Notes under the pieces: model-generated
Database searches by the model: none
What the model was told of the DNA's origin: nothing
Seen by the model: the letters and a program-made list of their open reading frames with translations, nothing else
Shown: positions 18,560 through 57,775 of the stretch, in pieces
How the letters are laid out: each line of letters opens with the position of its first letter
Numbering within the stretch: position 1 is the stretch's first letter
Made by a program: the position numbers and the translations under genes
DNA from: an uncultured Planctomycetia bacterium
GTDB taxonomy: Bacteria; Omnitrophota; Gorgyraeia; JABMRG01
Length of the DNA stretch: 64,000 bases
Direction: 5' to 3'
Assembly (NCBI GenBank): GCA_964634945.1
Contig: CAZWMG010000006.1
Coordinates: forward strand, 736 to 64,735

Positions 18560-18758
18560 GCAAAGGATAAATCCTAAACTCTAATATCTAAATCTTAAAC
18601 AAATTCAAAATTTTAATTTTCAAATGTTCAAAACTTTTGTTTTGAACATTTGATTTTTGATAATTTGATATTGTTTAGAGATTAGAACTTAAGATTTAGA
18701 ATTTAAGGATTATGCTTGCTAAGCAATTCTTACCACTTAATTCTTACAACTAAACGCG
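18560..18758. repeat. MITE-like palindromic intergenic repeat, copy A
   Basis: 'aaatcctaaactctaatatctaaatcttaaac...caaatgttcaaaacttttgttttgaacatttg...tttagagattagaacttaagatttag' has terminal and central inverted symmetry. Related copies occur at ~49.2, 51.4, 53.6 and 57.7 kb. Confidence 0.75.
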
Positions 18759-18782
18759 GGAATCTTCCCTATTAAAAACTTC

Positions 18783-19283
18783 CTATCTGTAATTATTGAA
18801 ATGAAGTGGTATAGAAAAATCCAGATCCTTTAAATGCTGCATAACGGACTGTAAATCATCCTTTTTAGGGGCAAACACTCTTACCTTCTCCCCTTCAATC
18901 TGTGACTGTACCTTTAATCCAAGGTTCTTAATAATCTTTACAAGCTCTCTTGCTTTTTCCTTCTCAATGCCTGTGGTAATCAACGCCTCTAGCTTTAAAT
19001 GCCCGCTGAAGACCTTTTCCGGTTCTGAAAAATCAAGCGCCTTTGGCGATATTCCTCTTTTTACTATCCTTGTAAGGACTATGTCTTTTAATGAGCGGAG
19101 TTTAAAATCATCAGGCGTAACCAGGGTTATCTTTTTCTCCTCACGATTATACTCTATTGTAGATTTTGAACCCTTAAAATCATATCTATTTCCGAGCTCT
19201 TTCTTTGCCTGCTGTATAGCGTTATCAACCTCCTGCATATCTACGTCTGAAACTATATCAAATGAAAATTTTTCCTTTGCCAT
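18783..19283 (-). CDS. yajQ: YajQ-family nucleotide-binding protein (UPF0234/DUF520)
   Basis: 'MAKEKFSFDIVSDVDMQEVDNAIQQAKKELGNRYDFKGS' is the characteristic YajQ N-terminus. Length is 166 aa. Confidence 0.8.
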   Translation of the reverse strand: MAKEKFSFDIVSDVDMQEVDNAIQQAKKELGNRYDFKGSKSTIEYNREEKKITLVTPDDFKLRSLKDIVLTRIVKRGISPKALDFSEPEKVFSGHLKLEALITTGIEKEKARELVKIIKNLGLKVQSQIEGEKVRVFAPKKDDLQSVMQHLKDLDFSIPLHFNNYR

Positions 19284-19303
19284 ATTTTTACTCCTTTAGC
19301 TCT

Positions 19304-20377
19304 TTATAAATTAAACCTTATATCAAGAAGATCCCCATCCTCGACAATATAATCTTTTCCCTTTAAATATGCCTTTCCTGATTCCTTAACCTTTGCCTCG
19401 CTTCCTAATGAGATAAGGTCGTCATATTTTATAACCTCGGCGCGTATAAAACCTTTTTGCAGGTCAGTATGTATGGCACCCGCGGCTTCCGGTGCTGATG
19501 ACCCTGCAACTACGGTCCATTGACGCACCTCATCGGGGCCGACAGTAAAAAATGATATCAGGTTAAGCGCTTTTATGCATAACCTTGTCATTACATTAGC
19601 GGCAGGCTCCTTTATGCCAAGCGCCTGCAAGAACTCTTCTCTTTCCTGCTCTGTCTCAAGAGACGCTATCTCAGATTCTACCTTAGCGCAGGCAGGCATT
19701 ATATAAAGGTCGGCATCCTTATACCTCTCTTGCATATCTTTTATTATAGAATTATTTAATATATCATTCTCTGAAACATTAATAATGATAAGCATCTTTT
19801 TAAATGTTACAAACGGATAACTTGATATCAGTTTTTTCTCATCAGCATCGAGGATTAGCAACCTTAGAGGCAGATTCTTATCAAGATGCTCCTTTATCTT
19901 TAAAAGGAGCGCTTTCTCTTTTATGGATTGCGCGTCATTAAGCTTTTTGATACTCTTATCAAGGCGCTCAAGACGCTTTTCAATAAAAAGCATGTCATGC
20001 AGTATCAGCTCTGAGTTAATATTATCTATATCTCGAGAAGCATCAACAGAACCATCGATATGATAAACCGAGTCATCCGCAAAAGACCTAACGACATGAG
20101 CTATGGCATCCATCTCAGCGATATCCTTGAATATATCCCCCTTTGCTATGGTGTCCTTCTCGATCTTAGGAAGCATCTCTATCTCTACCCTTGCCCTGAC
20201 ATTCTTTTTTGGATTATACATATCAGAGAGTATATCAAATCTAGGATCTTTGATCTGGGCTATATTTTTTATCGGCTTTCCCGATACAATATCCTTCTCT
20301 GTCAACTCATGACCGGTGAGTATCTGAAAAAATGTCTTTTTGCCTGTCTGCGGTAGACCTATTATACCTATCTTCAA
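19304..20377 (-). CDS. ychF: redox-regulated ATPase YchF (Obg-like GTPase family)
   Basis: 'MKIGIIGLPQTGKKTFFQILT' is the G1 motif. The TGS-like C-terminus and 357-aa length fit YchF. Confidence 0.85.
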   Translation of the reverse strand: MKIGIIGLPQTGKKTFFQILTGHELTEKDIVSGKPIKNIAQIKDPRFDILSDMYNPKKNVRARVEIEMLPKIEKDTIAKGDIFKDIAEMDAIAHVVRSFADDSVYHIDGSVDASRDIDNINSELILHDMLFIEKRLERLDKSIKKLNDAQSIKEKALLLKIKEHLDKNLPLRLLILDADEKKLISSYPFVTFKKMLIIINVSENDILNNSIIKDMQERYKDADLYIMPACAKVESEIASLETEQEREEFLQALGIKEPAANVMTRLCIKALNLISFFTVGPDEVRQWTVVAGSSAPEAAGAIHTDLQKGFIRAEVIKYDDLISLGSEAKVKESGKAYLKGKDYIVEDGDLLDIRFNL

Positions 20378-20424
20378 GTAAGTATCCTTTTACCTTTAAT
20401 ATCGTTTTGGCGTAATTCAAAAGC

Positions 20425-22533
20425 TTATTTGGATTCCCTTGCTTCCTTTGCTTTCTTTGCCTCTTCCAGCACTTTCTCTGTCAAAGAATTAGGCGCTTTA
20501 GCGTATTTCTCAAAATGCATCGAGTACCCGGCGCGACCGCTTGTCAATGTGCGTAACGCAGAGGCGTATCCAAACATCTCTGAAAGAGGCGCTTCGGCAA
20601 CCACAATCTGCTGGGTCGCCTTTGCCTCCATAGCCATTATCTTTCCGCGTCTTGAGCATATATCACCTGTCACATTTCCCATATACTCTTCAGGGGTGGT
20701 TATCTCAACGGACATCTGCGGCTCCAGAATAACCGGGCCTGATTTTAAAAACGCGGATTTAAAGCATTCAGCACCGGCTATCTTAAACGCCATTTCCGAT
20801 GAATCTACCTCATGATATGAGCCATCGATCAATGTAACCTTTACATCTACAACCGGATATCCGGCATATATACCTCGCTGCATAGCGGCTATTATGCCCT
20901 TTTCTACCGCAGGTATGTATTCCTTTGGTATAGAGCCGCCTTTTATCTGGTTTACAAACTCAAAGCCCTTACCAGCCTCAACCGGTTCGAGAATAATCTC
21001 TACATGTCCGTACTGTCCTCTGCCGCCTGTCTGCTTTGAATGTTTGTAGCTCTCCTTGGTCTGCTTAAAGATCGTCTCTCTGTAAGCAACCTTTGGCGCG
21101 CCAACCTCTGCTTCTACATTAAACTCGTGCTTTAGCCTGTCCACGATAATCTCAAGATGAAGCTCTCCCATGCCTGAGAGTATGACCTCATCGGTCTCCT
21201 CATCTGTCTTGACAGTAAATGTAGGGTCCTCATCCGCTAATCTTATAAGGCCCTTGCTGAGTTTATCTTGGTCTGCCTGACTCTGCGGCTTTATGCTTAG
21301 AGACATAACAGGCGCCGGAAACTCAATAGCCTCCAGCAATATAGGGCTATCTTCAGCGCAGAGGGTATCACCTGTCTTTGTCCTGTCCAGGCCTATAGCA
21401 GCCGCTATATCTCCTGTGAATATATCTTCTCTTATCTCCCTGTCATTGGCGTGCATCTGCAGTATCCTGCCGACTCTCTCTTTTTTGCCTCTTGTAGCAT
21501 TCAATACATACGAACCTGCTTTTAATGATCCTGAATAGACCCTGAAATATATCAATTTGCCCATGTGAGGATCAGACTGTACCTTAAACGCGAGCGCTGA
21601 AAAAGGCGCGTCATCATCAGGTTTTCTCTCAAGAGACGCCTCCGGGTCATCAGGGCTGCTTCCCTTGATAGCACTTGTATCAAATGGTGATGGCAAATAA
21701 GTGTTTACCGCGTCAAGAAGCTGTTGTACGCCCTTATTCTTAAATGCTGAACCACAGAGTATAGGAACTATCTTATTGGATATCGTACCTATGCGTATAG
21801 CGTTTATAAGCTCTTCTGGCGTTATAGACTCTTCTGATTCAAGATATTTCTCCATAAGGTTATCACATAGCTCGACCGCCTTCTCAACCATAATATGATG
21901 ATATTCCTTTGCCTGCTCTTTATAGTCATCAGGGATATCCTCTACCTTAAAGTCCTTACCCGTTGAATCACTATCATATAAATAGGCCTTCATCTCAATA
22001 AGGTCGATAACACCCTTAAAATTGTCTTCCGCCCCTATAGGAATCTGCAAGGGTATAACATGAGCGCCTAAGTCTTTCTTTATAGCCTCTTTCACAGCAA
22101 AAAAATCAGCTCCTACGCGATCCATCTTATTTATAAACGCGAGCTTTGGTACAGCGTATTTATCAGACTGTCGCCAGACTGTCTCGGATTGCGGCTCAAC
22201 GCCTCCTACAGCGCAAAAGACCGCGACAGCCCCATCTAGGATACGTAATGACCTTTCAACCTCTACTGTAAAATCAACGTGTCCGGGGGTATCGATAATA
22301 TTGATCCTGCAATCCTGCCAGTAACAGGTTGTAGCCGCGGATGTAATAGTAATGCCCCTCTCCTGCTCCTGCTTCATCCAGTCCATCTGCGCGTTACCGT
22401 CATGGACCTCACCTATCTTATGGGATATACCCGTGTAAAATAGTATACGCTCTGTAAGCGTTGTCTTGCCGGCATCGATATGAGCCATTATTCCGATATT
22501 CCTGATATTTTTTAAATCAATAGTCCTTGGCAT
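20425..22533 (-). CDS. fusA: translation elongation factor G
   Basis: '[19 protein letters not shown]...[19 protein letters not shown]...DTPGHVDF' and the 702-aa length match EF-G. It is not linked to rpsL/rpsG here, so it may be an EF-G paralog. Confidence 0.9.
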
Positions 22534-22535
22534 TT

Positions 22536-23900: not shown

Positions 23901-24648
23901 TTAATACTTTTATAGATGTCGGGCTGCTCTCCGGGCCCTTATACTTTAACCAAGCGAAATCGCCTTGTGCCAAATGCCAGGTATATGCCTTTGGCAGGAA
24001 AACCTTAAATATGCTTAAAAGCCCAAGATTAGGATCAAGGCATATCTTATAAGCGGGCAATTTCTTATTATGAATATCTATGACCTCCTCATTAATCACC
24101 TTAATATCTACCACTAGTAGACTCGGTTCAGCGGTCAATAGGTCCACCCTCTTTTCTCTGATACCATTATTTAGCAATTTCTGCAGGTAAAGAGAAAGTG
24201 CCAGCCTATTTATCGGGTCAGAGGAAAAATTAAACTCTCTCGATGTTTCACGGTCTTTAACCTTGTCCTTCTTTGTACATAATATTTTTTTATCAATATA
24301 ATCGAATTCCTGCGTCTCTATAGCAAGTAATTCCTTCGCCTTATTAAAAACTCGCTTTTCTACCCTGATCGGGCTTATAGTATCTTTAGTGCTCTTAAAC
24401 CGCAATACAGATGCCCATGATACCTCATCTTCAAAACCGCTATAATAACCCATACCGTCTTCTGTTAATATGAATATGTCGTCAGGGTCACCTTTAAGGT
24501 GTTTAATAACAGCTTTCGCGCTCCACCTTGGATTGCCCTCCAAATCTGTGCAAAAATAACTTGTGTTGAAATTCGTATCAATATCAGAAAAACACGCAGG
24601 CGCTGATAATAATACGATACAAGCAATCAGTGTAATTATTTTCAACAT
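23884..24648 (-). CDS. secreted hypothetical protein
   Basis: Signal peptide 'MLKIITLIACIVLLSAPACFSD'. No recognisable domain. Confidence 0.4.
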   Translation of the reverse strand: MLKIITLIACIVLLSAPACFSDIDTNFNTSYFCTDLEGNPRWSAKAVIKHLKGDPDDIFILTEDGMGYYSGFEDEVSWASVLRFKSTKDTISPIRVEKRVFNKAKELLAIETQEFDYIDKKILCTKKDKVKDRETSREFNFSSDPINRLALSLYLQKLLNNGIREKRVDLLTAEPSLLVVDIKVINEEVIDIHNKKLPAYKICLDPNLGLLSIFKVFLPKAYTWHLAQGDFAWLKYKGPESSPTSIKVLIETKG

Positions 24649-24904: not shown

Positions 24905-24944
24905 AATATAGTATAATGCATGAAGAAAAGATTGGAGGTTTGAT

Positions 24945-25502: not shown

Positions 25503-25511
25503 CACTTATGC

Positions 25512-27034: not shown

Positions 27035-27049
27035 ATATTCATATAATAA

Positions 27050-35591: not shown

Positions 35592-36092
35592 TGTTACCTA
35601 TTTTATCACTTTTTTTAATAGCCGCAAGCAAAATCCGCAATAACAACTATACACCAGTGCAAAACTAGTCACTGCCGCCAACTTTAAACTTGGGGGTAGT
35701 TTTCACAGAAACGCTCGCAAACCCCTGCGAGGTTTGCTCACTCCGTTTTGTTGCTCATTCATACAATTAAAACAACGTGGAAAAACCATGCCATTCGTAA
35801 CAAAAAGGTTCTGTTCCAAACCACCCCCAAGCCTAAAGTTTACGCAAGGTGTTTACTGCATGCTATTCTCATCATATATATCCGAAAGGTTTCGTTGCAA
35901 TCAGAGCAGGACCTTGTTGATGCGAGCGGGCAAGGTTTCCGCCGAAGGCGGAAGAGCGAACATCAACGCGGAGTACAATTTTACACGCCGGGGAAAATTG
36001 TACGCTCCTGCGGAGATTGGCTACGAAACCTTTTGGCTATCATAAACGAGTTTTTGTTGTGAGATCAAATGCCTAATGTTATACTATAAAAC

Positions 36093-36978: not shown

Positions 36979-37524
36979 TCATTGCTCAATCATTGTCATG
37001 ATCTTTCGCTTTGCCCTCATAAGATTATGCGCCACGGCATTAGGGCTCATATTAAGCTCTACAGCAGCAACATTATAGGAGAGCCCCTTAATACTGCACA
37101 ACTCTAAAACGGCCCTGTAATTGTAGGCTAACCTATCCATAGCGCTTAAGAGCATATCCATGTGCTCTTTCTGCTGGGTCACGACATCCGGAGCCTCAAA
37201 CTTTGTATCAACTATTATATCAGAGAGTTCTCTGCATCCCTGATCAGATCCTATTCTCCTATTCAAGGACTCCTTGCATGAATATTGCTTACTTCTCGTA
37301 TAATTATAGGAGAGATTACGCGAAACCGTATACGTCCATTTCAGAAAGTCTGTTCGATTGACTATCTTTTCAAGATTCGTATAAGCGCGCATAAATGTTT
37401 CTTGCGCTATATCTTCAGCGGCGTATCTCTCATTATTCAGTAGGCGCGTGACTCGCGAATGTATCTTTTTAAAATACCTCTTGTAGAAAACCTTAAAAAT
37501 TCTTTCTCTCTGATCATAGGACAT
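36979..37524 (-). CDS. ECF-type RNA polymerase sigma-70 family factor
   Basis: Region 2 'AEDIAQETFMRAYTNL' and region 4 'LSYNVAAVELNMSPNAVAHNLMRAKRKI'. Length 181 aa. Confidence 0.75.
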   Translation of the reverse strand: MSYDQRERIFKVFYKRYFKKIHSRVTRLLNNERYAAEDIAQETFMRAYTNLEKIVNRTDFLKWTYTVSRNLSYNYTRSKQYSCKESLNRRIGSDQGCRELSDIIVDTKFEAPDVVTQQKEHMDMLLSAMDRLAYNYRAVLELCSIKGLSYNVAAVELNMSPNAVAHNLMRAKRKIMTMIEQ

Positions 37525-38777: not shown

Positions 38778-39211
38778 ATTTATCTATCCTCCTTAGTTAG
38801 CAGCCTAAGATCTATAAGGCATAAAAAAAGCCCTAAAACATTTAAAAGGTATCTACCTCTTGAAAGTTTTAGGGCTTGAAAAATCAATATCTGATATTTC
38901 GGCAACCCGACTACCGTACCCTTTGACAATTCTGGGTTTAGGCTCGCGGCTTTGCGCCCCGCTCTTTCAAGCGGTTTGCCTTTATCGTTACTTTTTTAAA
39001 AGAACCTTTGTTTCTTCTCATAACAAATATGCCCTACCCTTTACCAAAAGTCAAGGGGTTAGAAGTATATTTTTACATTTCTACACTTTTACACTTTGTC
39101 CATCTCATTAAAATGATCCGTAGCAATCTTCACAGGAACGTACAATTTTACCCAACGTATAAAATTGTACTACACCTGTTCTCAATATTGTTCACACCTT
39201 CTGCCTTCACT

Positions 39212-39279
39212 GCGCAGGTATTTTTGCCATCCACTTATAACAGTAGGCAAAAAAATCCAATGCGCCGCTACAGGCAAAG
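39212..39279. repeat. conserved imperfect hairpin module (copy 1 of 2)
   Basis: 'gcgcaggtatttttgccat[variable ~16 nt]ggcaaaaaaatccaatgcgc..caggcaaag'. The same stem with a different loop recurs at 61860..61927. Confidence 0.6.
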
Positions 39280-39694
39280 GTGCCGACAATATTCTTATTT
39301 AGACATGCATATGATCCTAAAAACCATAAAAAGCAAGGAAATAACGTGCTTAGGGGGTACTGTTCTCACGATTTCACTATTAGCTTGTGTAGTGGTCTTG
39401 AGCAAAACCTTTTTTCTTAAATGTTGCAGTGTATGCTAGCAACATTTAAGGAACCTTCTGGTACAAAGCGACTACTAGCGGTTTGTTACGAATAGCATGC
39501 CTGCCGGCCGGCAGGGTTTTTCCGTATTGTTTAACTATATGGATGAGCAACAAAGCGGAATAAGCAAACATCGCTGGAGTTTGCGAACGTTTTTGTGAAG
39601 ACCACTACGCAAGCATGGGGGGCACGGATTACAACAAAATTTTCTTTGGTTATATATGATTATAAATCAGGTAAGAGGTGAAAAGATGTTGGGA

Positions 39695-40429
39695 TTAAGG
39701 ATTTGTATGTGCCGCGCGCTTCTCTATATACTCTATGACCCCCTCTTGCGTAGCGGGGGAAAGGCCTGTAAAGGCAACGCCCATTCCGGGATAGAGTTCA
39801 GGCTGAAGCATTTTATCAGCGAGCCACATTACAACGCCTTGGAATTCCTTTGGGTCCTGATCTTTTTCAAGCATGATCTCAAGGCGGACATCACTACCCG
39901 GAGGCAGGAGCTGGATGGAACGTATAAAAAGACCTGCGCCGCTTAAATTGCCCATTCTGCCTGAACAGATATGGCCTCCTTTATCAGAACGTGAATATTG
40001 AGCCAGCCTATAAACTATGGGCAAGTCTATATCAAGCCTTAAAAAACGTCGACGCCACTGCTGTTTAAGATCATCTTTCCCCAAAGAATCCACTTTGTTC
40101 GTAAAACTATCGATAGCCTTATCTATGTCAGGGTATATCTCAAAAACATCATCGAGTTTTACTACCCTGAAAATCTCTTCAACATCAAGTATTATGCCGC
40201 ATAATTTCATTATACACTTATTATTTAACGCGTTCTTATAGGTTATAGCCAGTACAGAAAGTCCGTTATAATCTACATGACTAATACCCTTCATATCTAT
40301 GATTATCTTTGAGCTGCCCTTCTCAAGCAAATCACCTACTATCTCTATAAGCTTGGATGAGTTAATATTTATCATGCCCTCTATGTTCAGGACATCGATG
40401 TCATGGAGGCGCTTTACCTTTATCTTCAT
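39695..40429 (-). CDS. STAS-PilZ fusion protein
   Basis: N-terminal STAS-like segment ('IDVLNIEGMIN...KIIIDMKGISHVDYNGLSVLAI...'). C-terminal PilZ motifs 'RRRFLRLD' (RxxxR) and 'GNLSGAGLFI' (D/NxSxGG). Confidence 0.55.
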   Translation of the reverse strand: MKIKVKRLHDIDVLNIEGMININSSKLIEIVGDLLEKGSSKIIIDMKGISHVDYNGLSVLAITYKNALNNKCIMKLCGIILDVEEIFRVVKLDDVFEIYPDIDKAIDSFTNKVDSLGKDDLKQQWRRRFLRLDIDLPIVYRLAQYSRSDKGGHICSGRMGNLSGAGLFIRSIQLLPPGSDVRLEIMLEKDQDPKEFQGVVMWLADKMLQPELYPGMGVAFTGLSPATQEGVIEYIEKRAAHTNP

Positions 40430-45067: not shown

Positions 45068-45201
45068 ATTGCAATAATTATATCAATTATACGCCCTATC
45101 CGCAAGTAAAAACAAAAATTGCCCCCATCTATTTAGCCATGTATCTTTTTTAACTTTACAAAGACAACCAAAGCCATATATAATAGGTAAAAGGTAAAAT
45201 T

Positions 45202-48058: not shown

Positions 48059-48061
48059 ATA

Positions 48062-48724: not shown

Positions 48725-49117
48725 CTATGACAATACCTCTCTTAATGTTTGCGGCATGCGCTTAGGCTTGCCTGTCTTATCTGTAAAAACATGGACTGTC
48801 TCCGCTTCTGTCAATACATCCTTACCACGCGTCACCTTATAGGCAAAGGTAATACTGCTGTTTCCCAATTTAGTCACGCTGCAGGCTATATCAATAAGGT
48901 CATCATATCGCGCCGGCGATTTATAGCGGCACCTAACCTCCGAAACCATAAGGCGCAATCCTAGTTCCTCTTCTATGCCTCTATATGTATGGCCGATATC
49001 TCTTAAGAGTTCGGCCCTAGCCACTTCAAACCATACCAAATAGTTGGAATAATAGACAACCCCCATCTGGTCTGTCTCTTTGTAGCGAGCCCTCAATCTA
49101 GTTGTATATTCAATCAT
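48725..49117 (-). CDS. acyl-CoA thioesterase, YbgC/4HBT family
   Basis: 'RYKETDQMGVVYYSNYLVWFEVAR' is the hot-dog fold motif. Confidence 0.75.
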   Translation of the reverse strand: MIEYTTRLRARYKETDQMGVVYYSNYLVWFEVARAELLRDIGHTYRGIEEELGLRLMVSEVRCRYKSPARYDDLIDIACSVTKLGNSSITFAYKVTRGKDVLTEAETVHVFTDKTGKPKRMPQTLREVLS

Positions 49118-49165
49118 ACTATATTTTTATAAATTAAACGCTATCCTATTCACATATTCGGATTT

Positions 49166-49395
49166 AGTATTAAGTTGTAAGCATTAAGCAACAAGCCTAA
49201 TCCTTAAATTCTAAATCCTAAGTTCTAAACTCTAAACAATATTAAATTACCAAAATCCAAATGTTCAAAAAAAAGTTTTGAATTCTAGAAATTAGAATTT
49301 TGAATTTGTTTAGGATTTAGATATTAGAGTTTAGGATTTATTATTTACCTCTTTTCCTTTTCCTTCACCTTTACCTAGTATCTTGTATCTAGCAT
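49166..49395. repeat. MITE-like palindromic repeat, copy B
   Basis: 'gtaagcattaagcaacaagcctaatccttaaattctaaatcctaagttctaaactctaaac...tttgaatttgtttaggatttagatattagagtttaggattt...cacctttacctag'. It is the inverted counterpart of copy C. Confidence 0.8.
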
Positions 49396-49402
49396 CCAGT
49401 AT

Positions 49403-49888
49403 CTAGTGTATCTTATAATGAAGTAGAACTATCTCTATATCATTAAAAGGAAATCGCTCTTTTTCAACAAAGCCTTTCTTCTCCTGCAAAAGCTTAATAG
49501 CCGCCTCCATCCTTGATGTTGCTCTGAAAACCACTTGTTTGTATCCGTTCATCTTACAAAAATCCAGGGCAGTGTCAACTAGCATAGATCCTATCTGCCT
49601 GCCCCTGTGGCTTGAATGAACAAATAATCTCCTCAAGAGAGCCGTAGAATCACTATCCTCTTTGATGCCGATAGTGCCTATCACTTCATCATCTTCCTGT
49701 ACCACTAAAAACTTTTCTCTTAGGGCTCCATACGCGTCTGATATGCTCTTTAAGTCCCCATACTGATATGCCTTCTCCTCAACAGGGTACTCTTTATTCA
49801 TAATCGAGCTGATCAGAGACTTAACGCTTGATATATCTGTTGGGTGAAATGATCTTATCTCCATTACCTCTCTCCTTAATGAGGTCAC
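49403..49888 (-). CDS. GNAT-family N-acetyltransferase
   Basis: 'LRRLFVHSSHRGRQIGSMLVDTALDFCKMNGY' is the acetyl-CoA binding motif (R/Q-x-x-G-x-G/A). Confidence 0.75.
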   Translation of the reverse strand: MTSLRREVMEIRSFHPTDISSVKSLISSIMNKEYPVEEKAYQYGDLKSISDAYGALREKFLVVQEDDEVIGTIGIKEDSDSTALLRRLFVHSSHRGRQIGSMLVDTALDFCKMNGYKQVVFRATSRMEAAIKLLQEKKGFVEKERFPFNDIEIVLLHYKIH

Positions 49889-50171
49889 AACTTAGACCTG
49901 CCTGCCGGCAGGCAGGGAACAAGGTGAACTAAGTTGTTTGACCGAATTAACCCCGTACCCAAGCCTGGCGTCTAAATGCACACTTCGCAGGCGAGTGGTG
50001 TCGAGGTAACGACTACCCACAACTTAGAAAACAAAGTTGTATGAGCAAATTAACCTATGAATCCTATAAAAGTCTAACTTCTAATATATTATTAAATTAT
50101 CACAATGTCAATAAAATTGGCATTTTAACAATTATTTTTATTCTCTTCTACCCACAAGCGCTTAAAAATTG

Positions 50172-51263
50172 CTATTTTAAGCGCCTTAAAATTGCTGACT
50201 TTATAACCTCGCGCGGCACCTGATCGCATACTACTACATGGCCTATATCTACAGGTAAGATCCAACGCTTCTTTCCCCTTACAATCTTTTTGTCATATGA
50301 AGTGGCCATTAGAACATCTTCAGGAGATATGCCTTTAACGAAAACAGGCAGCCCTACCTGCTTTATCAAGGCTTCTACACGTCCGGCTATCGAGGCTTTT
50401 GTCATTTTCAGTGCAAGCGCAATATCAAAAGCAGCGATCATGCCTATTCCGATGGCTTCTCCATGATTAATCGATCTCTTATATGAAGATGCCGCTTCAA
50501 TAGCGTGGCCTATGGTGTGACCGAAATTCAATATCGACCTATAACCAAGCTTTTCGTGCTCATCAGCCGCTACAACCTCTGCCTTTAATTTGCCACAACG
50601 CGCAACCATGTATTCTGTAGGTGCCTTGTTAAAATTAATTATTTTAGAGGCGTTTTTCTCAAGATAATTAAAAAATTTATTATCAAGTATAACGCCATAT
50701 TTAATTATCTCTGCCAGTCCATTACGTATCTGACGCTTAGGTAGGCTCTTGATAACAGAGACATCTGCTATAACAACCTTTGGCTGGTAAAACGAACCTA
50801 CAAGGTTTTTCGCGAAATCTAAATCTATAGCGACCTTACCGCCTATAGCGGAATCTACCTGCGCTAGAAGCGTTGTCGGAATCTGGACAAAACCTACACC
50901 ACGGCGGTATGTAGAAGCGACAAACCCCGCAAGATCCCCTACTACCCCTCCGCCAAGAGCTATGACGCAGGCCCCCTTGCCCTTATCAAATCTGGCGAGG
51001 CTCTTAAGAACCCTGAACCAGCTTAGATAAGATTTGGCATTTTCTGAATCAGGGACCATGCAAAACGTAAAATCCATTCCGGATGCAGCGATAGACCTGC
51101 CTAGCCTATCCCCGTAAAGAGACATTATCTTTTTATTAGTTACTATAAAACAGGCCTTTGCGATATTTAAAGACCTTATTATCCTTCCCGCGTTAGAGAG
51201 TGCCCCTGCCTCTATGCAAATATTGTAGCTTTCCTTACCGAGATCAACTTTTACCTTGTTCAT
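50172..51263 (-). CDS. aroB: 3-dehydroquinate synthase
   Basis: 'ALGGGVVGDLAGFVASTYRRGVGFVQIPTTLLAQVDSAIGGKVAIDL' is the AroB signature. Confidence 0.85.
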   Translation of the reverse strand: MNKVKVDLGKESYNICIEAGALSNAGRIIRSLNIAKACFIVTNKKIMSLYGDRLGRSIAASGMDFTFCMVPDSENAKSYLSWFRVLKSLARFDKGKGACVIALGGGVVGDLAGFVASTYRRGVGFVQIPTTLLAQVDSAIGGKVAIDLDFAKNLVGSFYQPKVVIADVSVIKSLPKRQIRNGLAEIIKYGVILDNKFFNYLEKNASKIINFNKAPTEYMVARCGKLKAEVVAADEHEKLGYRSILNFGHTIGHAIEAASSYKRSINHGEAIGIGMIAAFDIALALKMTKASIAGRVEALIKQVGLPVFVKGISPEDVLMATSYDKKIVRGKKRWILPVDIGHVVVCDQVPREVIKSAILRRLK

Positions 51264-51324
51264 TGAGACGCTCCTTTATATATTAGTTTAAGTATAGCAA
51301 CATAAATATAAGCTGTCAAGAAAG

Positions 51325-51565
51325 GATAAAGAAAAAAAGTATAAAGTAAAAAGGATAAAGGAAAAGAGGTAAATAATAAATCCTAAACTCTAATATCTAA
51401 ATCCTAAACAAATTCAAAATTCTAATTTCTAGAATTCAAAACTTTTTTTTGAACATTTGGATTTTGGTAATTTAATATTGTTTAGAGTTTAGAACTTAGG
51501 ATTTAGAATTTAAGGATTAGGCTTGTTGCTTAATGCTTACAACTTAATACTAAATTCGAATATAT
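51325..51565. repeat. MITE-like palindromic repeat, copy C (inverted relative to B)
   Basis: 'aaaggataaag...aaatcctaaactctaatatctaaatcctaaac...caaaactttttttt gaacatttg...ttagagtttagaacttaggatttagaatttaaggattaggcttgttgcttaatgcttacaactt' is the reverse complement of copy B. Confidence 0.8.
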
Positions 51566-51587
51566 AAATAGAATAGCGGTTTTGGAT

Positions 51588-52211
51588 TTAGAAGGAGATA
51601 TTTATGCCTAGATACTTTACAACAATAAGCATGGCGCCATATATTAGTCTTCTTAGCATGCCTGTCCATAAAAGCAGGATTATAATAAGAAAACCATATG
51701 GCTGGATCTTGTTATACGCGGCGAGATACTGATATGGCAGCAGGGCGCTGACGATACGTGAACCATCAAGTGGGGGTATTGGGATCAGGTTAAATACAGC
51801 CAAGATAACATTGATAATAATGCCAAAAAATATAGCCTGTCCAAAGATTGTATGAACCAGCATAGGAAAAAGCTTTATCAGGATGCTTAAAATCGCGGCT
51901 AATAAAAAATTAGCAGCCGGCCCAGCCAAGCCCACCCAAAGCATATCACGCTTAGGATTTCTTAGGCTCATAAAATCTACAGGCACGGGCTTTGCCCAAC
52001 CTATCGGTGGAATATGCGCTATAGTAAGAAGCAAAGGCAGGATTATAGTTCCAAAAGGGTCTATATGCGCGATCGGGTTTAAGGTAAGACGCCCCATGTA
52101 TTTAGCTGTCGGATCGCCTAACCTATAGGCGACAAGGCCATGGGCATATTCATGTATAGTTATAGCAAATATTAGAATTACAAATTGCAGTATAATGTAA
52201 TGGACCATCAC
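51588..52211 (-). CDS. site-2 protease (peptidase M50) family membrane metalloprotease
   Basis: 'AITIHEYAHGLVAYRLGD' (HExxH) within a polytopic membrane protein, followed by 'NLIPIPPLDGSRI'. Confidence 0.7.
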   Translation of the reverse strand: MMVHYIILQFVILIFAITIHEYAHGLVAYRLGDPTAKYMGRLTLNPIAHIDPFGTIILPLLLTIAHIPPIGWAKPVPVDFMSLRNPKRDMLWVGLAGPAANFLLAAILSILIKLFPMLVHTIFGQAIFFGIIINVILAVFNLIPIPPLDGSRIVSALLPYQYLAAYNKIQPYGFLIIILLLWTGMLRRLIYGAMLIVVKYLGINISF

Positions 52212-52232
52212 TTATGACCCTTAAAAAAATAT

Positions 52233-52553
52233 CTACTTTATCGTAGATCCGGCAGGCAGGCCCTTATCAAGAGTTAAGATCGAAAGCATCTCACTATCAC
52301 TCGCGGCAAGCAGCATGCCGTTAGATTCCACGCCTCTTATTACGGCAGGTTCAAGATTTACAATAACCGCTACATTTTTACCTATAAGCTCTTCAGGCGT
52401 ATAGTGTTTTTTTATGCCTGCGACTACCTGCCTCTTTTCACTGCCTAAATCGATATCAACCACATAGAGTTTATCAGCGTCGGGATGGTCTTTCACACTC
52501 AGTATGGTCGCTGTCTTTATCTCTACTTTTTTAAACTCATCAAATGTTATCAT
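52233..52553 (-). CDS. tRNA-binding domain protein (CsaA/Myf-like)
   Basis: 'FKKVEIKTATILSVKDHPDADKLYVVDIDLG...VVAGI' is the EMAP/Myf tRNA-binding OB fold. Confidence 0.7.
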   Translation of the reverse strand: MITFDEFKKVEIKTATILSVKDHPDADKLYVVDIDLGSEKRQVVAGIKKHYTPEELIGKNVAVIVNLEPAVIRGVESNGMLLAASDSEMLSILTLDKGLPAGSTIK

Positions 52554-52586
52554 AAGATCACCGCAAACGGACTAAATAGCATAAGT

Positions 52587-52868
52587 TTATTTCTTACCTT
52601 TTTCTTTTGGTGCTTCCTTGGCCTTATCTTCAGCTACGGGAGCATCCGCGGGAGCAGCCGCATCAGTAGTTTCTTCGCCTTCTGCCGCCTCTTTCTTCTC
52701 CTTCTTAAACTTCAACTTCACCACCTTTACCTTAGGAAGGCCAAAGATAGAGTCCTTGTCTTCTTCCCATTTTTCTTCCTTTTGAAGAAGTAAAAGCCTG
52801 GCAAGGCGCTTTAGTACGCTCTTTTGCTGCTTGCCTTTTCCACTCTTGAAACTCGGATGAACTGACAT
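52587..52868 (-). CDS. small Lys/Glu-rich hypothetical protein
   Basis: 93-aa ORF of highly charged low complexity. No recognisable domain. Confidence 0.3.
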   Translation of the reverse strand: MSVHPSFKSGKGKQQKSVLKRLARLLLLQKEEKWEEDKDSIFGLPKVKVVKLKFKKEKKEAAEGEETTDAAAPADAPVAEDKAKEAPKEKGKK

Positions 52869-52884
52869 TTTTATTACCTCCTGA

Positions 52885-53451
52885 TTAAATTTTTCTTACC
52901 AGACAATCGGAATATTGCTTGCGCAGCCTCTTCATCTCTGAATCAGCATCCTCTTTATCCCTGAACTTGCCTATGCACATAATATAATAACTTCCCTTAT
53001 GTAACGCGAAAGCCTCGTAACCCTCAGATTTGAGCTTATCTACACGCCCTTTCGCGAAACTCTCACTCGTATAAGAAGCTACTTGAACCGTATAACCCGG
53101 AAGAGGCTTTTCCTCATACTCCGACAACAACTCGTCTTCGCTTTCTTTTTTTACAACCGCGTCCTCGGCATGCTCATCTGTTTTTGATAAAACTATCTTT
53201 TCCGTATCTTTTTTCGCGTCTTGGGCAAAAGATGCTCTTTTCAAACGAACAGATTTGCCTCTTTCAACACCTAATGAAAAGACTATGATAGAGAATACGA
53301 TTAACCCGATAGCTATAAACGCGATATGTTCATATAGGAGCGTTATCGCTCTCTTAGACTTATTTTCAAACAGATTTTTTGGATACCTTCTTTTTTCAGG
53401 ACTTCCAAACTCTTCAAAAAGCTCTTTCTGGACCTGTCTCTTCTCATCCAT
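52885..53451 (-). CDS. SPOR-domain membrane protein
   Basis: Single TM plus C-terminal 'YTVQVASYTSESFAKGRVDKLKSEGYEAFALHKGSYYIMCIGKF' SPOR domain. Confidence 0.55.
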   Translation of the reverse strand: MDEKRQVQKELFEEFGSPEKRRYPKNLFENKSKRAITLLYEHIAFIAIGLIVFSIIVFSLGVERGKSVRLKRASFAQDAKKDTEKIVLSKTDEHAEDAVVKKESEDELLSEYEEKPLPGYTVQVASYTSESFAKGRVDKLKSEGYEAFALHKGSYYIMCIGKFRDKEDADSEMKRLRKQYSDCLVRKI

Positions 53452-53539
53452 AATCTAATCTCTTATTCTTTCATGTAAAGCATTGTATTATAACACAATA
53501 AATGAGCAATACAAATAAAAAAACGCTATCTCTGCGTTT

Positions 53540-53760
53540 AGTCGTAAGTTGTAAGTATTAAGTACTAAACCCAATCTTTAAATTCTAAATCCTAAGTTCT
53601 AAACTCTAAACAATATCAAATTACCAAAATCTAAATGTCCAAAACGAAAGTTTTGAATTTTGAAAATTAGAATTTTGAATTTGTTTAGGATTTAGATATT
53701 AGAGTTTAGGATTTATTATTTACCTCTTTTTCTTCACCTTCACCTTTACCTAGTTCATAG
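53540..53760. repeat. MITE-like palindromic repeat, copy D
   Basis: 'gtaagttgtaagtattaagtactaaac...taaattctaaatcctaagttctaaactctaaac...tttgaatttgtttaggatttagatattagagtttaggattt...cacctttacctag', in the same orientation as copy B. Confidence 0.8.
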
Positions 53761-53763
53761 CAT

Positions 53764-54468
53764 CTATCGTACCGTAAGCTTAAATAAATCCGTATTTATG
53801 CTGATAGAGGGGTTGTCCGTACTCCCTGATACATACAGATCTACTTCTGAAAATTGCCCGTTTGTCTTAAAAAATACTTTTCTTACACTATCAGGTATGC
53901 CGGAAGTTAATTCATTAGATAGGATAAGCTTAAAACTATAGCCTATCTCCTTACCGCGTATCGAACCGTCTGCAAAGACCTTTAGCAACTTTCCTTCCGC
54001 GTGAAGCGCGTTTATAGTGATGTCTTCTCTGCTTATATAAAGCTTTCCTTTAACATAATCAAAACTAAGAACATCCAAAGGCTTAATAGACAACGTATCC
54101 GCTATCCCATCTATAATCTTTGAATCCGGATAAGAAAGCTTGAGGTCCTTCATATTGAATGTCAAATGTATCCTCATCGCCAGAAAAGATGATGCCTCAA
54201 TGTGCAAAATCACTTCTCCTACAGCACAATTAAGCCCCTTATTATTGGCTATGTTTAAGCCTTCTATATCTATTCTTGGCCCTAGTCCTAAATTAAAATT
54301 CTCTGTAGTTACCTTGGCATCTAGCTTGTTGGAGAGATATGCTACTAATAGCCTCTCGCTTAATAGATTACGAAAATATACAAGCGATGAAAGCAATAAA
54401 ATAATAATAACTACGATTGATATATAAGTCTTTTTCATCTTCAACCTTTGTAACTTTTGTAACCACAC
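53764..54468 (-). CDS. membrane-anchored hypothetical protein
   Basis: N-terminal anchor 'ISIVVIIILLLSSLVYF'. No clear domain. Confidence 0.4.
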   Translation of the reverse strand: MWLQKLQRLKMKKTYISIVVIIILLLSSLVYFRNLLSERLLVAYLSNKLDAKVTTENFNLGLGPRIDIEGLNIANNKGLNCAVGEVILHIEASSFLAMRIHLTFNMKDLKLSYPDSKIIDGIADTLSIKPLDVLSFDYVKGKLYISREDITINALHAEGKLLKVFADGSIRGKEIGYSFKLILSNELTSGIPDSVRKVFFKTNGQFSEVDLYVSGSTDNPSISINTDLFKLTVR

Positions 54469-54484
54469 TCTATTTGTTCTTATA

Positions 54485-56011
54485 TTACAGCGGTTTTTTA
54501 AGCTCCTCAGAGTGTTTTCTCATCAACTGCTCAAGCCTGCCATCCTTAGCAAGCAATACAAGGACCTTCACTATATCCGGATCGAACTGCTTTCCTGATT
54601 GTCGACGCACTTCTGATACAACCATGCGAAAAGGTATAGGCTCACGATATGGCCTGTAACAGACCATGGCCTCAAAGGCATCCGCTATAGCCATAATACG
54701 CGCGCCCAAAGGTATCTTTTCTCCTTTTAACCTGTCTGGGTAGCCTGTACCATCATACTTTTCATGGTGATGCAGTATTATAGGTATTACAGGCTTTAAT
54801 ACATCGAGATACTTAAGCGCCTCAATGCCCTTTACTGTATGGGTCTTTAACATCTTACGCTCTTTTCCACTTAAACCTTTTTTCTTCTGGAGCGTCTCTT
54901 CGGGGATAACCAGCTTTCCGAGATCAGGCATAAGAGCGGAATATTGAATGATCTTAAGTTCCTTTTTTGTCAGGCCCAATTCTCTGCCAAGCTCAATTAT
55001 CAGATCCTCAAAAAGGCCTGTGTGAGTATAGAGCCTTGGAAATTTTGCGTCCAGAAGATAGCCTAAAGATTTTATAGTGCCCGCTGTCAGGTCTTCCTGC
55101 TCCTTGTAGAGCTGCGCGTTTCCTATAGCGATTACAGCCTGCTCCGCGAGAGTCGTAAGTATCTCACGGTCAAATATCGTAAAATTATCAGCGCCTATCT
55201 TATCTTTGATAGTTATAACCCCGCATATCTCTTCATCCACAAGAGGCACGCTAAGGAGATTATCCTTATAAATGGATCTGCCATAACAAGCGACTTTTTT
55301 CTCAAATGGCGTTGGCTTTGTGTTAAGCTTAAATACATCACTGCTCTTTCTGTAATCAACCGAGGTAACGCAGGCGAGTTTGCTTGTCTCCTGGTCTATC
55401 ATGCATATTCGCACTCTCTCCGCTTTTAATACCTGCAGACTAAGACGCGCTATCCTGGGAAAGAGCTCCTTAAGATCCAGCGTAGAACTGATTAGGCGAT
55501 GGATAGTATGCACTGTAGATAAGGCTATCGCGCGGGGCCTTACGAGCTCATAGAGCCTGGTGAGCTCTTTTTCCCTGCTCATCTCCTTAATAATTATATC
55601 TACATAACCCGCAAGGATATCAAGAAGCGCGGGATCAGGTTTGACCTTAAGGTCATATACACCAAAGAAGCCGACACATTTTCCCTGCCTTTCAATAGGC
55701 GCGGCTATCCCATATGTATTATTTAAACTGGCTTCAAAAAAAACAGGGAACTTAGACTTCTCTGCCTGACTCATGGCCCTTAGAATGTTCTTCTTATAAT
55801 CAGCGAGAGAAAGATAGTCTTCCACGCCCCTGGCCCTCTTTAAACGTGTAATCGGCAGAATACTTCCGGGGCTTCTTTTATCCGCTACCCACCACATAGG
55901 CCTATGTAGAAATTTATCAAAGGCATCTTTTAAATCTCTGTAACCTGTGTTTTCAAGCAGAGAATGAAAGAAACTTTTATTCTTTGCTGATTTTCCTATT
56001 CGCTTCATCAT
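54485..56011 (-). CDS. GAF-domain HD-GYP phosphodiesterase (second copy)
   Basis: 'HHHEKYDGTGYPDRLKGEKIPLGARIMAIADAFEAM' plus an upstream GAF-like region. Confidence 0.75.
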   Translation of the reverse strand: MMKRIGKSAKNKSFFHSLLENTGYRDLKDAFDKFLHRPMWWVADKRSPGSILPITRLKRARGVEDYLSLADYKKNILRAMSQAEKSKFPVFFEASLNNTYGIAAPIERQGKCVGFFGVYDLKVKPDPALLDILAGYVDIIIKEMSREKELTRLYELVRPRAIALSTVHTIHRLISSTLDLKELFPRIARLSLQVLKAERVRICMIDQETSKLACVTSVDYRKSSDVFKLNTKPTPFEKKVACYGRSIYKDNLLSVPLVDEEICGVITIKDKIGADNFTIFDREILTTLAEQAVIAIGNAQLYKEQEDLTAGTIKSLGYLLDAKFPRLYTHTGLFEDLIIELGRELGLTKKELKIIQYSALMPDLGKLVIPEETLQKKKGLSGKERKMLKTHTVKGIEALKYLDVLKPVIPIILHHHEKYDGTGYPDRLKGEKIPLGARIMAIADAFEAMVCYRPYREPIPFRMVVSEVRRQSGKQFDPDIVKVLVLLAKDGRLEQLMRKHSEELKKPL

Positions 56012-57183
56012 ACCCTCTCGTAAGGCTCAAAAAGCTTCTTATACTCATCAAGCGCGTATCTATCTGTCATACCTGCTATATAATCACATATGATCGCCCT
56101 GCGCGCAGAGTCATCCTTCGCCCTTTCATAATAGCTGCTTGGCAAAAGACGTGGCTCATCAAGATAAACGTTAAAAAGTTTCACAATAAAACGCTTTGCC
56201 TTATTTGCCATACGCATCACTCTATAGTGTTTATAAAAATTCTTTAAGAGAAAATCCCGTAAAACCACCTTCTGAGAATTTAATGACGATGAGAAATCAA
56301 TTATCTTGACATCACATTTTCTGGCCTTTTCAACAGAATCTATATTGTACTTTTTTATGCGCTTCTCAGATTCACCTATAAGGTCTGTTACAAGCCTGTT
56401 TATGAGCGCCCTGATAGCCTGGTACCTTCTCTGTTCAGTGTCCATGGGTTGTCGCAGATTCTTTGTATCCAGGCTTAAGCCCTTCCATATCTCAAGTTTT
56501 TCAAGTAAGGGCTCGGATAATATCCTGCTCGTAAGCCCATCATCAAGATCGTGGCTGAAATACGCTATCTCATCCGCCACATCCACAATCTGAGCCTCTA
56601 GCGTAGGGAACTGCTTCAGATCAAATTCTTCTGTCTTAGGAGGATTATCAAAAGAGCTGCTGTGCCTGGCAATGCCTTCTCTGACCTCAAAGGTAAGATT
56701 TAAACCCGCAAACTCAGGGTAGCGCTTCTCCAGCAAATCAATGACTCGCAGACTCTGCATATTATGGTCGAACCCGCCAAAGGGCTGCATAAGCTCATTT
56801 AATATCTCTTCACCTGAATGCCCAAAAGGGGTATGGCCAAGATCGTGCGCCAGGGAGATAGCTTCAACAAGGTCCTCGTTCAATGAAAGAGCGCGCGCGA
56901 TAGTACGGGCTATCTGCGCGACCTCTAATGTATGCGTTAAACGTGTGCGGTAATAATCACCTTCATAATTTACAAAAACCTGTGTCTTGTATTCCAAGCG
57001 CCTGAAAGCGGTAGTATGCAGGACCCTCTCCCTGTCCCTTTGATACATAGAACGATACGGGTGCTCCTTCTCGTTATGGCTCCTGCCTTTACTAAGGGGA
57101 GAGCTCATCGCGTATGGAGCAAGAAGAGATTCTGAATGAATTGAACTTAGGGCCTTACTAGGCATTTTTTCGTAACCTTTCAT
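56008..57183 (-). CDS. dgt: dGTP triphosphohydrolase-like HD-domain protein
   Basis: 'RTRLTHTLEVAQIAR...ISLAHDLGHTPFGHSGE' is the dGTPase HD motif. Confidence 0.8.
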   Translation of the reverse strand: MKGYEKMPSKALSSIHSESLLAPYAMSSPLSKGRSHNEKEHPYRSMYQRDRERVLHTTAFRRLEYKTQVFVNYEGDYYRTRLTHTLEVAQIARTIARALSLNEDLVEAISLAHDLGHTPFGHSGEEILNELMQPFGGFDHNMQSLRVIDLLEKRYPEFAGLNLTFEVREGIARHSSSFDNPPKTEEFDLKQFPTLEAQIVDVADEIAYFSHDLDDGLTSRILSEPLLEKLEIWKGLSLDTKNLRQPMDTEQRRYQAIRALINRLVTDLIGESEKRIKKYNIDSVEKARKCDVKIIDFSSSLNSQKVVLRDFLLKNFYKHYRVMRMANKAKRFIVKLFNVYLDEPRLLPSSYYERAKDDSARRAIICDYIAGMTDRYALDEYKKLFEPYERV

Positions 57184-57631
57184 ATAGGCAGGACAAAGAC
57201 TCTGATATTACCTTTACGTCGCCAAGTATCGGCATGAAGTTTGTATCGCCCTCCCAGCGAGGCACAATATGCATATGAACATGCCCGGGAAATCCCGCGC
57301 CGGATACCTTTCCGACATTAACACCTATGTTATAACCTTGGGGTTTTATAACCTTGCTTAAGAGGCTGGTCGTCTTATTGAGTAAGCGCATCAGATCCGC
57401 AGTCTCAGGCGCTGAAAGCTTTTCAAGGGATGACTTGTGCTTTTTTGGCACAACCATTATATGGCCATTGTTATATGGATATATATTTAACATTGAAAAA
57501 GAATGCCTTGTCTTTTCAATGACATAACTCTTTTTCATATCGCGCGAATCTCTTGCCTGGCAGAAGATGCACCCCTGCCTCTTTCGCTGGTAAATAAATT
57601 TGCTTCTCCATGGCGCCCATATGGTTTTCAT
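57158..57631 (-). CDS. HIT-family hydrolase
   Basis: 'FPGHVHMHIVPRW' is the histidine-triad HxHxHxx motif. Confidence 0.75.
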   Translation of the reverse strand: MKTIWAPWRSKFIYQRKRQGCIFCQARDSRDMKKSYVIEKTRHSFSMLNIYPYNNGHIMVVPKKHKSSLEKLSAPETADLMRLLNKTTSLLSKVIKPQGYNIGVNVGKVSGAGFPGHVHMHIVPRWEGDTNFMPILGDVKVISESLSCLYERLRKNA

Positions 57632-57649
57632 AAGCTACTCTCCGCGTTA

Positions 57650-57775
57650 AACTCGAAATCCTAAACTCTAAACAATGTCAAATGAACAAAATCCGAATAT
57701 CTAAATTTTTTGAATTTAGAAAATTAGAATTTTGAATTTGTTTAGGATTTAGATATTAGAGATTAGGATTTAACT
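57650..57775. repeat. MITE-like palindromic repeat, copy E
   Basis: 'aaatcctaaactctaaacaatgtcaaatgaacaaaatccgaatatctaaattttttgaatttagaaaattagaattttgaatttgtttaggatttagatattagagattaggattt'. Confidence 0.75.

Follow-up and report, generated by a model that had tools for sequence, protein, structure and literature searches.

The window analysed here is a stretch of 64,000 nucleotides (nt; 64 kb) from a contig of an uncultured bacterium of the Omnitrophota (CAZWMG010000006.1, positions 736 to 64,735), and it contains five AT-rich imperfect palindromes, copies A to E, each 150-225 nt long and with no gene inside. What are these repeats, and from what kind of element do they derive? Our answer is that they are probably members, lacking an open reading frame (ORF), of a family of AT-rich hairpins of the type found as intervening sequences (IVSs) in rRNA genes. 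At the sequence level, the window copies are homologous both to copies that carry a gene and to copies embedded in rRNA genes. Bacterial rRNA IVSs have been known since 1990 and have been called selfish or parasitic, and their origin, their spread and the role of their conserved ORF are unexplained (PMC4990558; PMC11270868).

An earlier note on this DNA had reported five palindromic repeats with terminal arms, a palindromic centre and two flanking motifs, in both orientations. All of these were found again, with the extents refined (Table 1) and the centre exact in copy A; copies A and C lie on the plus strand and B, D and E on the minus strand. Coordinates throughout are positions in the window, and the canonical orientation is the one in which the left arm (AAATCCT-like) is read first. 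A family profile for nhmmer, built from 41 members, found exactly five copies in the window, at 100-118 bits, and no sixth. The 34-nt core CTCTAATATCTAAATCCTAAACAAATTCAAAATT was matched five times at ≤1 mismatch and a 44-nt right-arm pattern four times, while shuffled sequences gave 0 matches for each. The earlier claim that all copies are intergenic holds for A to D but not wholly for E: the final codons of a thymidylate-synthase-family ORF (57763-58596), TAA stop included, come from its 5' end. The window copies form a subfamily of their own, marked by a 5' module rich in purines and a 3' tail of 65 nt; the long tail is present in copies A-D and missing from copy E. Copies B and C are 98% identical across 225 nt and form an inverted pair that encloses aroB and a GNAT gene.

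Could the repeats be a local product, either of in-place growth of a heptamer microsatellite or of a regional segmental duplication? Period-7 arrays of other units do occur in the window (4294-4326, 59117-59163), and four of the five copies lie inside 8.7 kb. However, copy A lies 30 kb away from the rest, the sequences flanking the five copies are mutually unrelated, and exact 20-25-mers are common to hundreds of unrelated loci. We take this explanation to be refuted. The earlier note was right to speak of a dispersed family, since words from the arms recur in 97 genome stretches and relatives have no copy at sites B, C and E, as described below.

Each window copy folds as a single long imperfect hairpin (z = -3.6 to -7.3 versus dinucleotide shuffles), which bears out the earlier description of the copies as structured palindromes. 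Both arms are periodic at 7 nt (TRF period 7, up to 9.6 units). The canonical left arm is almost free of G and reads AAATCCT AAATyCT AATATCT AAATCCT AAACAAA TTCAAAA T...TTCAAAAC; it is followed by a variable loop, a hot spot for additional sequence (e.g. in loci L002, L006 and L067), and then by a C-poor right arm, GTTTTGAA...TTTTGGTCATTTGATATTGTTTAGAATTTAGGATTTAGTGCTTAGGATTT. Direct reading of the sequence showed that TAA on one arm and TAG on the other recur every 7 nt, so that stops are present in all three frames on both strands. The arms are not exact mirror images, AATATCT standing opposite AGGATTT and AAATCCT opposite AGTGCTT, and the element thus has conserved internal loops and a polarity; the profile scores ~110 bits on one strand versus ~58 on the other. 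The consensus stem has 51 pairs, with 81% of cells paired and double changes at 24 pairs. The RNAalifold consensus consisted of the core stem only, with zero compensatory pairs.

The conserved polarity and internal loops (AATATCT opposite AGGATTT) would also suit independent non-coding RNA genes, i.e., a new family of small RNAs made from one strand. Against this, both strands fold equally well (-36.9 vs -36.5 kcal/mol; n=76 elements, p=0.51), promoters and terminators are not consistently attached, a search of the elements with Rfam 15 gave no match at the gathering score or at E up to 10, and the polarity of the outer arms relative to the ORF of gene-bearing copies flips between loci. We consider such RNA genes highly improbable. 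A strand-specific RNA structure dependent on G-U pairs, hinted at by folds of copy C, was rejected on the same comparison of 76 elements. As a separate matter, other heptamer arrays lie outside the hairpin cores in intergenic sequence, at 4294-4326, 45181-45199, 51321-51366 and 59117-59163 (units TAAAAGG, AAAGGAT and CTTGCGC), and the source genome seems generally rich in 7-nt repeats.

The link to IVSs came from genes near the elements in other genomes. Clustering of ORFs near elements in the first 97 loci gave housekeeping families alone. With metagenomes added, clustering of ORFs ≤2.5 kb from 311 profile matches in 229 loci gave one element-linked family, present at 10 loci, and in nine of the ten its ~120-aa ORF lies exactly between the left and the right arm. 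All six loop ORFs tested scored above the gathering score of PF05635 ("23S rRNA-intervening sequence protein"), at 44-58 bits vs 33.8; the loop ORF also matches TIGR02436, "four helix bundle protein" (E 8e-22), and PDB 2RLD (E 1e-13). The gene is fitted closely into the hairpin: its ATG lies inside the arm motif TCAAATGACC, its first ~8 codons (MTKIQNSK) form part of the stem, and its stop abuts the other arm. Copies with no ORF retain the start-codon motif, seen in their right arm as the conserved GGTCATTTGA; in the window it reads ATTACC in copies A-D and ATGAAC in copy E (see also Table 1). This retention argues that the short hairpins are deletion derivatives of a cassette of ~500-560 nt. 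ORF-less and ORF-bearing copies occur together on single contigs (L204, with six copies, and L047), and the left arm of copy D matches that of a gene-bearing copy, L168, at ~45 of 47 positions by reading.

The PF05635 protein subfamily is very large, with at least 8000 candidates; identity to the query is ≥82% in every one of the best 120 clusters. The flips of outer-arm polarity relative to the ORF are what inversion of the loop through arm-arm recombination would produce. At one locus (L190), a divergent PF05635 gene (43% identity) lies between a different inverted pair that is also heptamer-periodic, with the unit AATTTCT.

Table 1. The five hairpin copies of the window and relics of the 5' end of the lost PF05635 ORF within two of them.
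Feature	Position	Strand	Remarks
Copy A	18556-18745	+	nhmmer 100.6 bits; RNA fold -53.5 kcal/mol, z -7.3
Copy B	49136-49360	-	nhmmer 112.3 bits; 98% inverted match to copy C
Copy C	51357-51581	+	nhmmer 112.3 bits
Copy D	53537-53734	-	nhmmer 118 bits
Copy E	57646-57788	-	nhmmer 106.5 bits
ORF relic, copy C	51459-51480	-	reads CAATATTAAATTACCAAAATCC; family motif TCAAATGACCAAAATCC, ATG changed to ATT
ORF relic, copy E	57678-57694	+	TCAAATGAACAAAATCC; ATG intact at 57682-57684

Family members were also found inside rRNA genes. The 23S gene of locus L154 (522-4807; Rfam 2261 bits) contains three full copies and spans 4286 nt versus 2925 nt for the model; the 16S gene of L224 (Rfam 1346 bits) contains two copies and spans 1839 nt versus 1533; and a partial 23S gene, in L128, contains one, as judged by Rfam and the family profile. 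One of the L154 copies follows E. coli position ~1163, near helix 45, which is the classic IVS site; this position is approximate, as are all rRNA insertion positions taken from the E. coli alignment, and the aligner put the first L224 insertion in the wrong place. Identity of the rRNA-embedded copies with those of the window is 64-76% over ~140 nt, and most of the former carry additional GC-rich outer stems. Insertions in the L154 23S gene come to ~1.36 kb in total and include, besides the three hairpin copies, inserts of 112 nt near position 540 (helix 25 region) and of 714 nt near position 1951.

Previous work on Coxiella described the IVS as a 428-nt "selfish genetic element" in helix 45 that carries an S23p ORF of the PF05635 family; its terminal inverted-repeat stem is an RNase III substrate, and tandem heptamers, GACAGAT in variable number, lie upstream of the ATG (PMC4990558). 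PF05635 ORFs have also been reported in rRNA insertions of the candidate phyla radiation (CPR) (PMC11270868). The present family shares with the rRNA IVSs of Coxiella burnetii, Leptospira and CPR bacteria a long terminal inverted-repeat stem around a ~120-aa PF05635 gene, an AT-richness relative to the host, and a sporadic distribution consistent with horizontal transfer; some of its members sit in 23S rRNA (~helix 45) and 16S rRNA. With the Coxiella IVS it further shares tandem heptamers in the stem upstream of the ATG. It differs in that the window copies lie in spacers between protein genes and have lost the ORF, and in that the Coxiella heptamer is GACAGAT rather than AAATCCT-like and the Coxiella stem is 28 bp, compared with arms of ~65 nt here. 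Among the papers that could be searched, none was found that links IVSs to dispersed intergenic hairpin repeats or that describes an ORF-less intergenic form spread over phyla, and words of the sequence gave no relevant match in the literature.

How widely is the family spread? An exact 25-mer of the left arm was found in 97 stretches of a species-representative genome collection, all of them metagenome-assembled genomes (MAGs). By our own tally of record titles these carry ~17 phylum-level labels: Planctomycetota (30), Patescibacteria (12), Nitrospirota (11), Chloroflexota (7), Omnitrophota, Bacteroidota and Pseudomonadota (5 each), Clostridia (4), and, in the remainder, WOR-3, Acidobacteriota and others. 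Matches lie on chromosomes of Cyclobacteriaceae (7.86 Mb) and WOR-3 (2.85 Mb) and on several contigs of >250 kb, which argues against an artefact of binning as the source of this breadth. The sole archaeal label, Candidatus Pacearchaeota (L045), was set aside: in this locus a chaperonin (Cpn60) gene and neighbouring ORFs are common to the Pirellulales loci L017 and L051, and the contig is probably misbinned. A 20-mer of the arm was found in at least 120 metagenome stretches and in 11 stretches of viral contigs. The exact 25-mer had 0 matches in IMG/VR, and there was no match in plasmid, phage-isolate and E. coli collections (blastn, 5,426 E. coli genomes). Over the 229 loci, the 311 profile matches comprised 158 full elements, 111 left arms only and 42 right arms only. 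Subfamilies are genome-specific, each with its own outer modules.

In one phage (L122, the same phage as L116), half-elements occupy three intergenic spacers of the structural block (2380-2500, 5680-5800 and 6930-7170), and a second group of phages carries full copies. The half-elements of L122/L116 are preceded by CTCGT-type heptamers, and one ends ~10 nt from a start codon, an arrangement that resembles a shared 5' leader. A GC-rich imperfect palindrome, GATTGCCACGCTGCGCTGGCAATGACAA, adjoins left-arm-only copies in L033, L066, L092, L022 and L023 (Planctomycetota and Dehalococcoidia labels) and may be a further cross-lineage repeat.

The protein and the arms are both under strong, long-standing constraint. 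Eight loop ORFs share 47-76% amino acid identity, with pS, the proportion of synonymous differences, at 0.70-0.98 (saturated) and pN, the nonsynonymous counterpart, at 0.15-0.36; dN/dS was ~0.08 for the single measurable pair. Saturated pS with low pN indicates that the protein is under purifying selection. For the arms, the telling case is a PF05635 cassette between leuC and leuD (L246-L256), an orthologous insertion in two diverged genomes, where pS is 0.75 in leuC, the ORF and leuD alike, yet identity reaches 87% in the 5' arm and 67% in the 3' spacer containing the 3' arm. These loci were retrieved by protein, independently of the arm words, and conservation of arms at saturated pS therefore indicates that the arms have been constrained over long times; recent transfer alone does not account for the words shared across phyla. 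Kept in two lineages with saturated synonymous sites, the cassette has thus resided for a long time in an essential operon.

The window copies themselves were compared with syntenic contigs of close relatives, in which gene order is kept; several window proteins share 90% clusters with proteins of Candidatus Orphnella occulta (Omnitrophota). In L106 and L109-L112, no element occupies site B, C or E. The spacer at site B is 7-24 nt in the relatives versus 285 nt in the window, that at site E is 39-53 nt versus 131 nt, and at site C the element is missing in syntenic relatives; site D has either a different hairpin repeat or a short spacer. A scan of the relatives' ~20-kb syntenic loci with the family profile found no copy. 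As read from these alignments, the absence of B, C and E points to recent gain in this Omnitrophota lineage. Short-read contigs in Logan that encode identical proteins stop inside the element at several sites, six of them all ending in copy E, as expected of a multicopy repeat. The inverted pair of B and C is a ready substrate for inversion. The relatives have the same gene orientation, however, so no inversion between B and C has happened, and a composite transposon or an inversion by this pair was rejected, gene order and orientation being identical in relatives that lack the repeats.

Presence/absence polymorphism of this sort is familiar from MITEs (miniature transposable elements with inverted repeats), and the earlier note had proposed non-autonomous transposable elements. 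A classical MITE would have arisen by deletion from a DDE or HUH insertion sequence and would be mobilised in trans by a transposase whose gene lies at another place in the genome, and the terminal inverted repeats, small size, lack of an ORF, multicopy state with B and C nearly identical, and genome-specific subfamilies all fit; the transposase search in this genome covered the 64 kb alone. What the MITE explanation lacks is a parent and a footprint. No transposase was found among the recurrent neighbours of the 311 matches or among window ORFs tested or annotated via relatives, which leaves the suggested partner of IS630 or IS200/IS605 type unsupported at these loci, and twenty further window ORFs and the Pfam calls on the relatives' contigs included no transposase, reverse transcriptase or PF05635 gene. 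The proposed search for target-site duplications likewise showed none, and no target consensus, at termini defined by motif, fold or profile, although a TAA-type duplication could hide in a TAA-containing unit. Further, the sole gene-bearing relatives carry PF05635, and the conservation of the arms far exceeds that of transposase ends at such divergence. The transposable-element claim is supported as regards terminal repeats and insertion polymorphism and unsupported as regards a transposase parent and target-site duplications, and we judge a classical MITE rather improbable. Insertion into pre-existing hairpins was also considered and rejected as a general rule, the duplex energies of real flanks not differing from those of permuted flanks (p=0.44); a tail of strongly complementary flank pairs is due to lineage-specific GC-rich outer stems.

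The positions of the copies might instead suggest a non-mobile structured element that serves the host as a terminator, as an mRNA stabiliser or in the manner of repetitive extragenic palindromes (REPs) and bacterial interspersed mosaic elements (BIMEs). Copies in the 97 genome loci are all intergenic and frequently abut start or stop codons, they form long hairpins with stops in all frames on both strands, and the arms are under purifying selection. Yet close relatives share the genes and promoters but lack copies at the sites; the strong aroB and GNAT promoters lie outside the elements (aroB promoter, 51319-51291) and are conserved in those relatives. Both orientations to transcription are found in co-directional gene pairs of the 97 genome loci (39 vs 27), with 13 copies between convergent and 7 between divergent genes. 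The same sequence occurs in rRNA genes and phages, and the elements contain no GC-rich stem followed by a T-tract. The earlier idea that they double as terminators found no support in a terminator scan of 48900-54000, which placed none within B, C or D and gave counts equal to those of shuffles; the AT-rich stems show no consistent T-tract, and a small hairpin with a T-run lies in the tail of copy D (53539-53521). The REP/BIME comparison failed as well: REP, BIME and REPIN sequences are 20-40 nt, GC-rich, species-specific and linked to REP-associated tyrosine transposases (RAYTs), whereas the window elements have AT-rich arms of ~65 nt, are shared across phyla and have no recurrent HUH/RAYT gene nearby. 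A host-serving element is thus very unlikely. Nor do the copies fit an integron attC site, since CCTAAAC / GTTTAGR do not match RYYYAAC / GTTRRRY, the orientations alternate and the neighbours are housekeeping genes.

Other repeat systems resemble the family in part. ERIC sequences (named for the enterobacterial repetitive intergenic consensus), or intergenic repeat units (IRUs), are ~127-nt imperfect palindromes with polarity that lie in transcribed intergenic regions in both orientations, vary strongly in copy number among relatives and have no known transposase. Additional sequence is inserted at internal sites of ERIC, as it is in the loop of the present elements. Unlike the present family, ERIC is limited to Enterobacteriaceae and Vibrionaceae is not built of heptamers and has no known parent with a gene, and the two have no sequence similarity, the 5,426 E. 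coli genomes giving no blastn match. Correia repeats, or Neisseria miniature insertion sequences (NEMIS), are intergenic inverted repeats of ~100-150 nt that are co-transcribed with genes, and RNase III cuts the mRNAs at the paired ends of these repeats (PMC10969869), as it may do here. They differ in having TA duplications, in being confined to one genus, and in having no PF05635 relative and no copies in rRNA. Heptamer arrays, i.e., TAACTGA of Beggiatoaceae, Cyanobacteria and Bacteroidetes and the short tandemly repeated repetitive (STRR) sequences of cyanobacteria, are likewise built of intergenic 7-nt units, often beside start codons, and show a patchy cross-phylum spread with no known mechanism of transfer (PMC4679880). 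Those are simple direct arrays of a single unit, however, whereas here two complementary degenerate arrays form a hairpin and long exact words are shared across phyla. A fourth likeness concerns the protein: Avd, the accessory protein of diversity-generating retroelements (DGRs), is also assigned to PF05635, and the family is mentioned in a DGR review. Avd, a basic protein, is a pentameric four-helix bundle and binds both nucleic acid and the reverse transcriptase. No reverse transcriptase and no template/variable repeat pair adjoins any element examined, and a functional relation to Avd is a lead, not a result.

How, then, would an IVS-type family come to leave ORF-less hairpins between protein genes? 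From the anatomy described above, the full-length element of ~500-560 nt has two ~65-nt arms of degenerate 7-nt units (AAATCCT-like and AGGATTT-like) pairing as one stem, with the gene for the ~120-aa four-helix-bundle protein (PF05635, TIGR02436) in the loop, and loss of the gene body leaves hairpins of ~150 nt such as those in the window. Members are found where a large hairpin is tolerated, namely in intergenic spacers, rRNA genes and phage genomes. A transcript of the element and its neighbours would fold into an imperfect double-stranded RNA stem of ~50-60 bp, which RNase III may cut, as experiments have shown for rRNA IVSs and Correia repeats. Such a cut would remove the element from rRNA or split a polycistronic mRNA between genes, and would account for its being tolerated in spacers and within rRNA genes. 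The short copies would depend on some recogniser of the conserved arms, the likeliest being the element's own protein, supplied in trans from gene-bearing copies. That the heptamer arms are read by this protein, and that short copies borrow it in trans, is speculative, as is a role of the PF05635 protein in mobility. We also entertain, as a doubtful extension, that the arms are specific binding sites of the element's multimeric four-helix-bundle protein, and that protein and hairpin propagate themselves without a nuclease, recombinase or reverse transcriptase of their own. If true, this would amount to a mobile or addictive element of a new class, and it would explain the origin of rRNA IVSs, the MITE-like swarms of ORF-less copies and the extreme conservation of the arms across phyla.

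Several observations weigh against counting the window copies among an IVS-type family that works in this way. All five lie between protein genes, and Rfam finds no rRNA gene in the window; a tblastn search of the 64 kb with PF05635 proteins found no such gene either, and a trans-acting source within this genome is therefore hypothetical. We know of no catalytic activity for PF05635 proteins. All loci of the main collection were gathered by exact arm words, a selection that makes the arm in question look more conserved than it otherwise would, and the relatives with empty sites are ~10% diverged, such that exact insertion junctions are not readable from them. Covariation in the stem is modest (221 double-change cells versus 190 +/- 10 in shuffles), and the two strands are, as noted, equally stable; together these suggest that constraint may act on the DNA or primary sequence instead of RNA structure. 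Finally, in Coxiella the IVS protein is seemingly not made (PMC4990558).

On the IVS reading, one such family is not tied to rRNA: it has members in ordinary spacers and in phages, in MAGs of ~17 phylum labels, occurs in both gene-bearing and gene-less forms, is missing at three sites in syntenic relatives, and has arms conserved far beyond neutral expectation. It offers a testable system, with many independent insertions, a candidate pairing of PF05635 protein and heptamer arm, and predicted RNase III cleavage within operons, and so a handle both on the unexplained origin and spread of IVSs and on the function of PF05635 outside retroelements. On the practical side, the repeats break short-read assemblies of uncultured phyla, and near-identical sequence in unrelated genomes may matter for binning.

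The neighbours of the five copies are all ordinary genes: aroB and genes for GNAT, 4HBT thioesterase, M50 peptidase, SPOR, HIT, dGTPase-like HD, thymidylate-synthase-family and DUF520 proteins. Copy A lies between convergent genes, beginning 4 nt past the TGA stop of ORF 18259-18552, with the DUF520 gene (18783-19283, minus strand) on its other side. Copy B is flanked by the GNAT gene (49403-49888) and the 4HBT thioesterase gene (48725-49117), copy C by the M50 peptidase gene (51588-52211) and aroB with its promoter (gene, 50172-51263), and copy D by ORF 53764-54468 and a SPOR-domain gene (52885-53451). A second, unrelated hairpin repeat occurs in the window at 39189-39279 and 61837-61927 (91 nt, 79% identical). 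In the Candidatus Orphnella relatives L110-L112 it occupies the intergenic site of copy D (~14740-14880), and Rfam gives it just weak generic long-hairpin matches.

The window has other features of note. A c-di-GMP-I riboswitch aptamer lies at 38898-38990 on the minus strand (80.8 bits), in a region that also holds genes for a PilZ-STAS protein (39695-40429) and an extracytoplasmic function (ECF) sigma factor (36979-37524). A ~3-kb segment is flanked by two inverted-repeat pairs (35696-36019 and 39124-39605; 76 nt at 83% and 48 nt at 85%), each of which contains an operator-like palindrome, GTACAATTTT-N11-AAAATTGTAC (35973-36003 and 39140-39170). Nine tandem 9-nt units, TTTGTAACC (91% matches), occupy 61487-61568, ~110 nt from a tRNA-Gly(CCC) gene at 61679-61753. 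Lastly, 12510-16451 on the minus strand encodes a 1313-aa protein with anti-Pycsar Apyc1-like/metallo-beta-lactamase and cyclic-nucleotide-binding domains, and this gene adjoins that of a 1046-aa protein with 174-nt tandem repeats (9528-10045).

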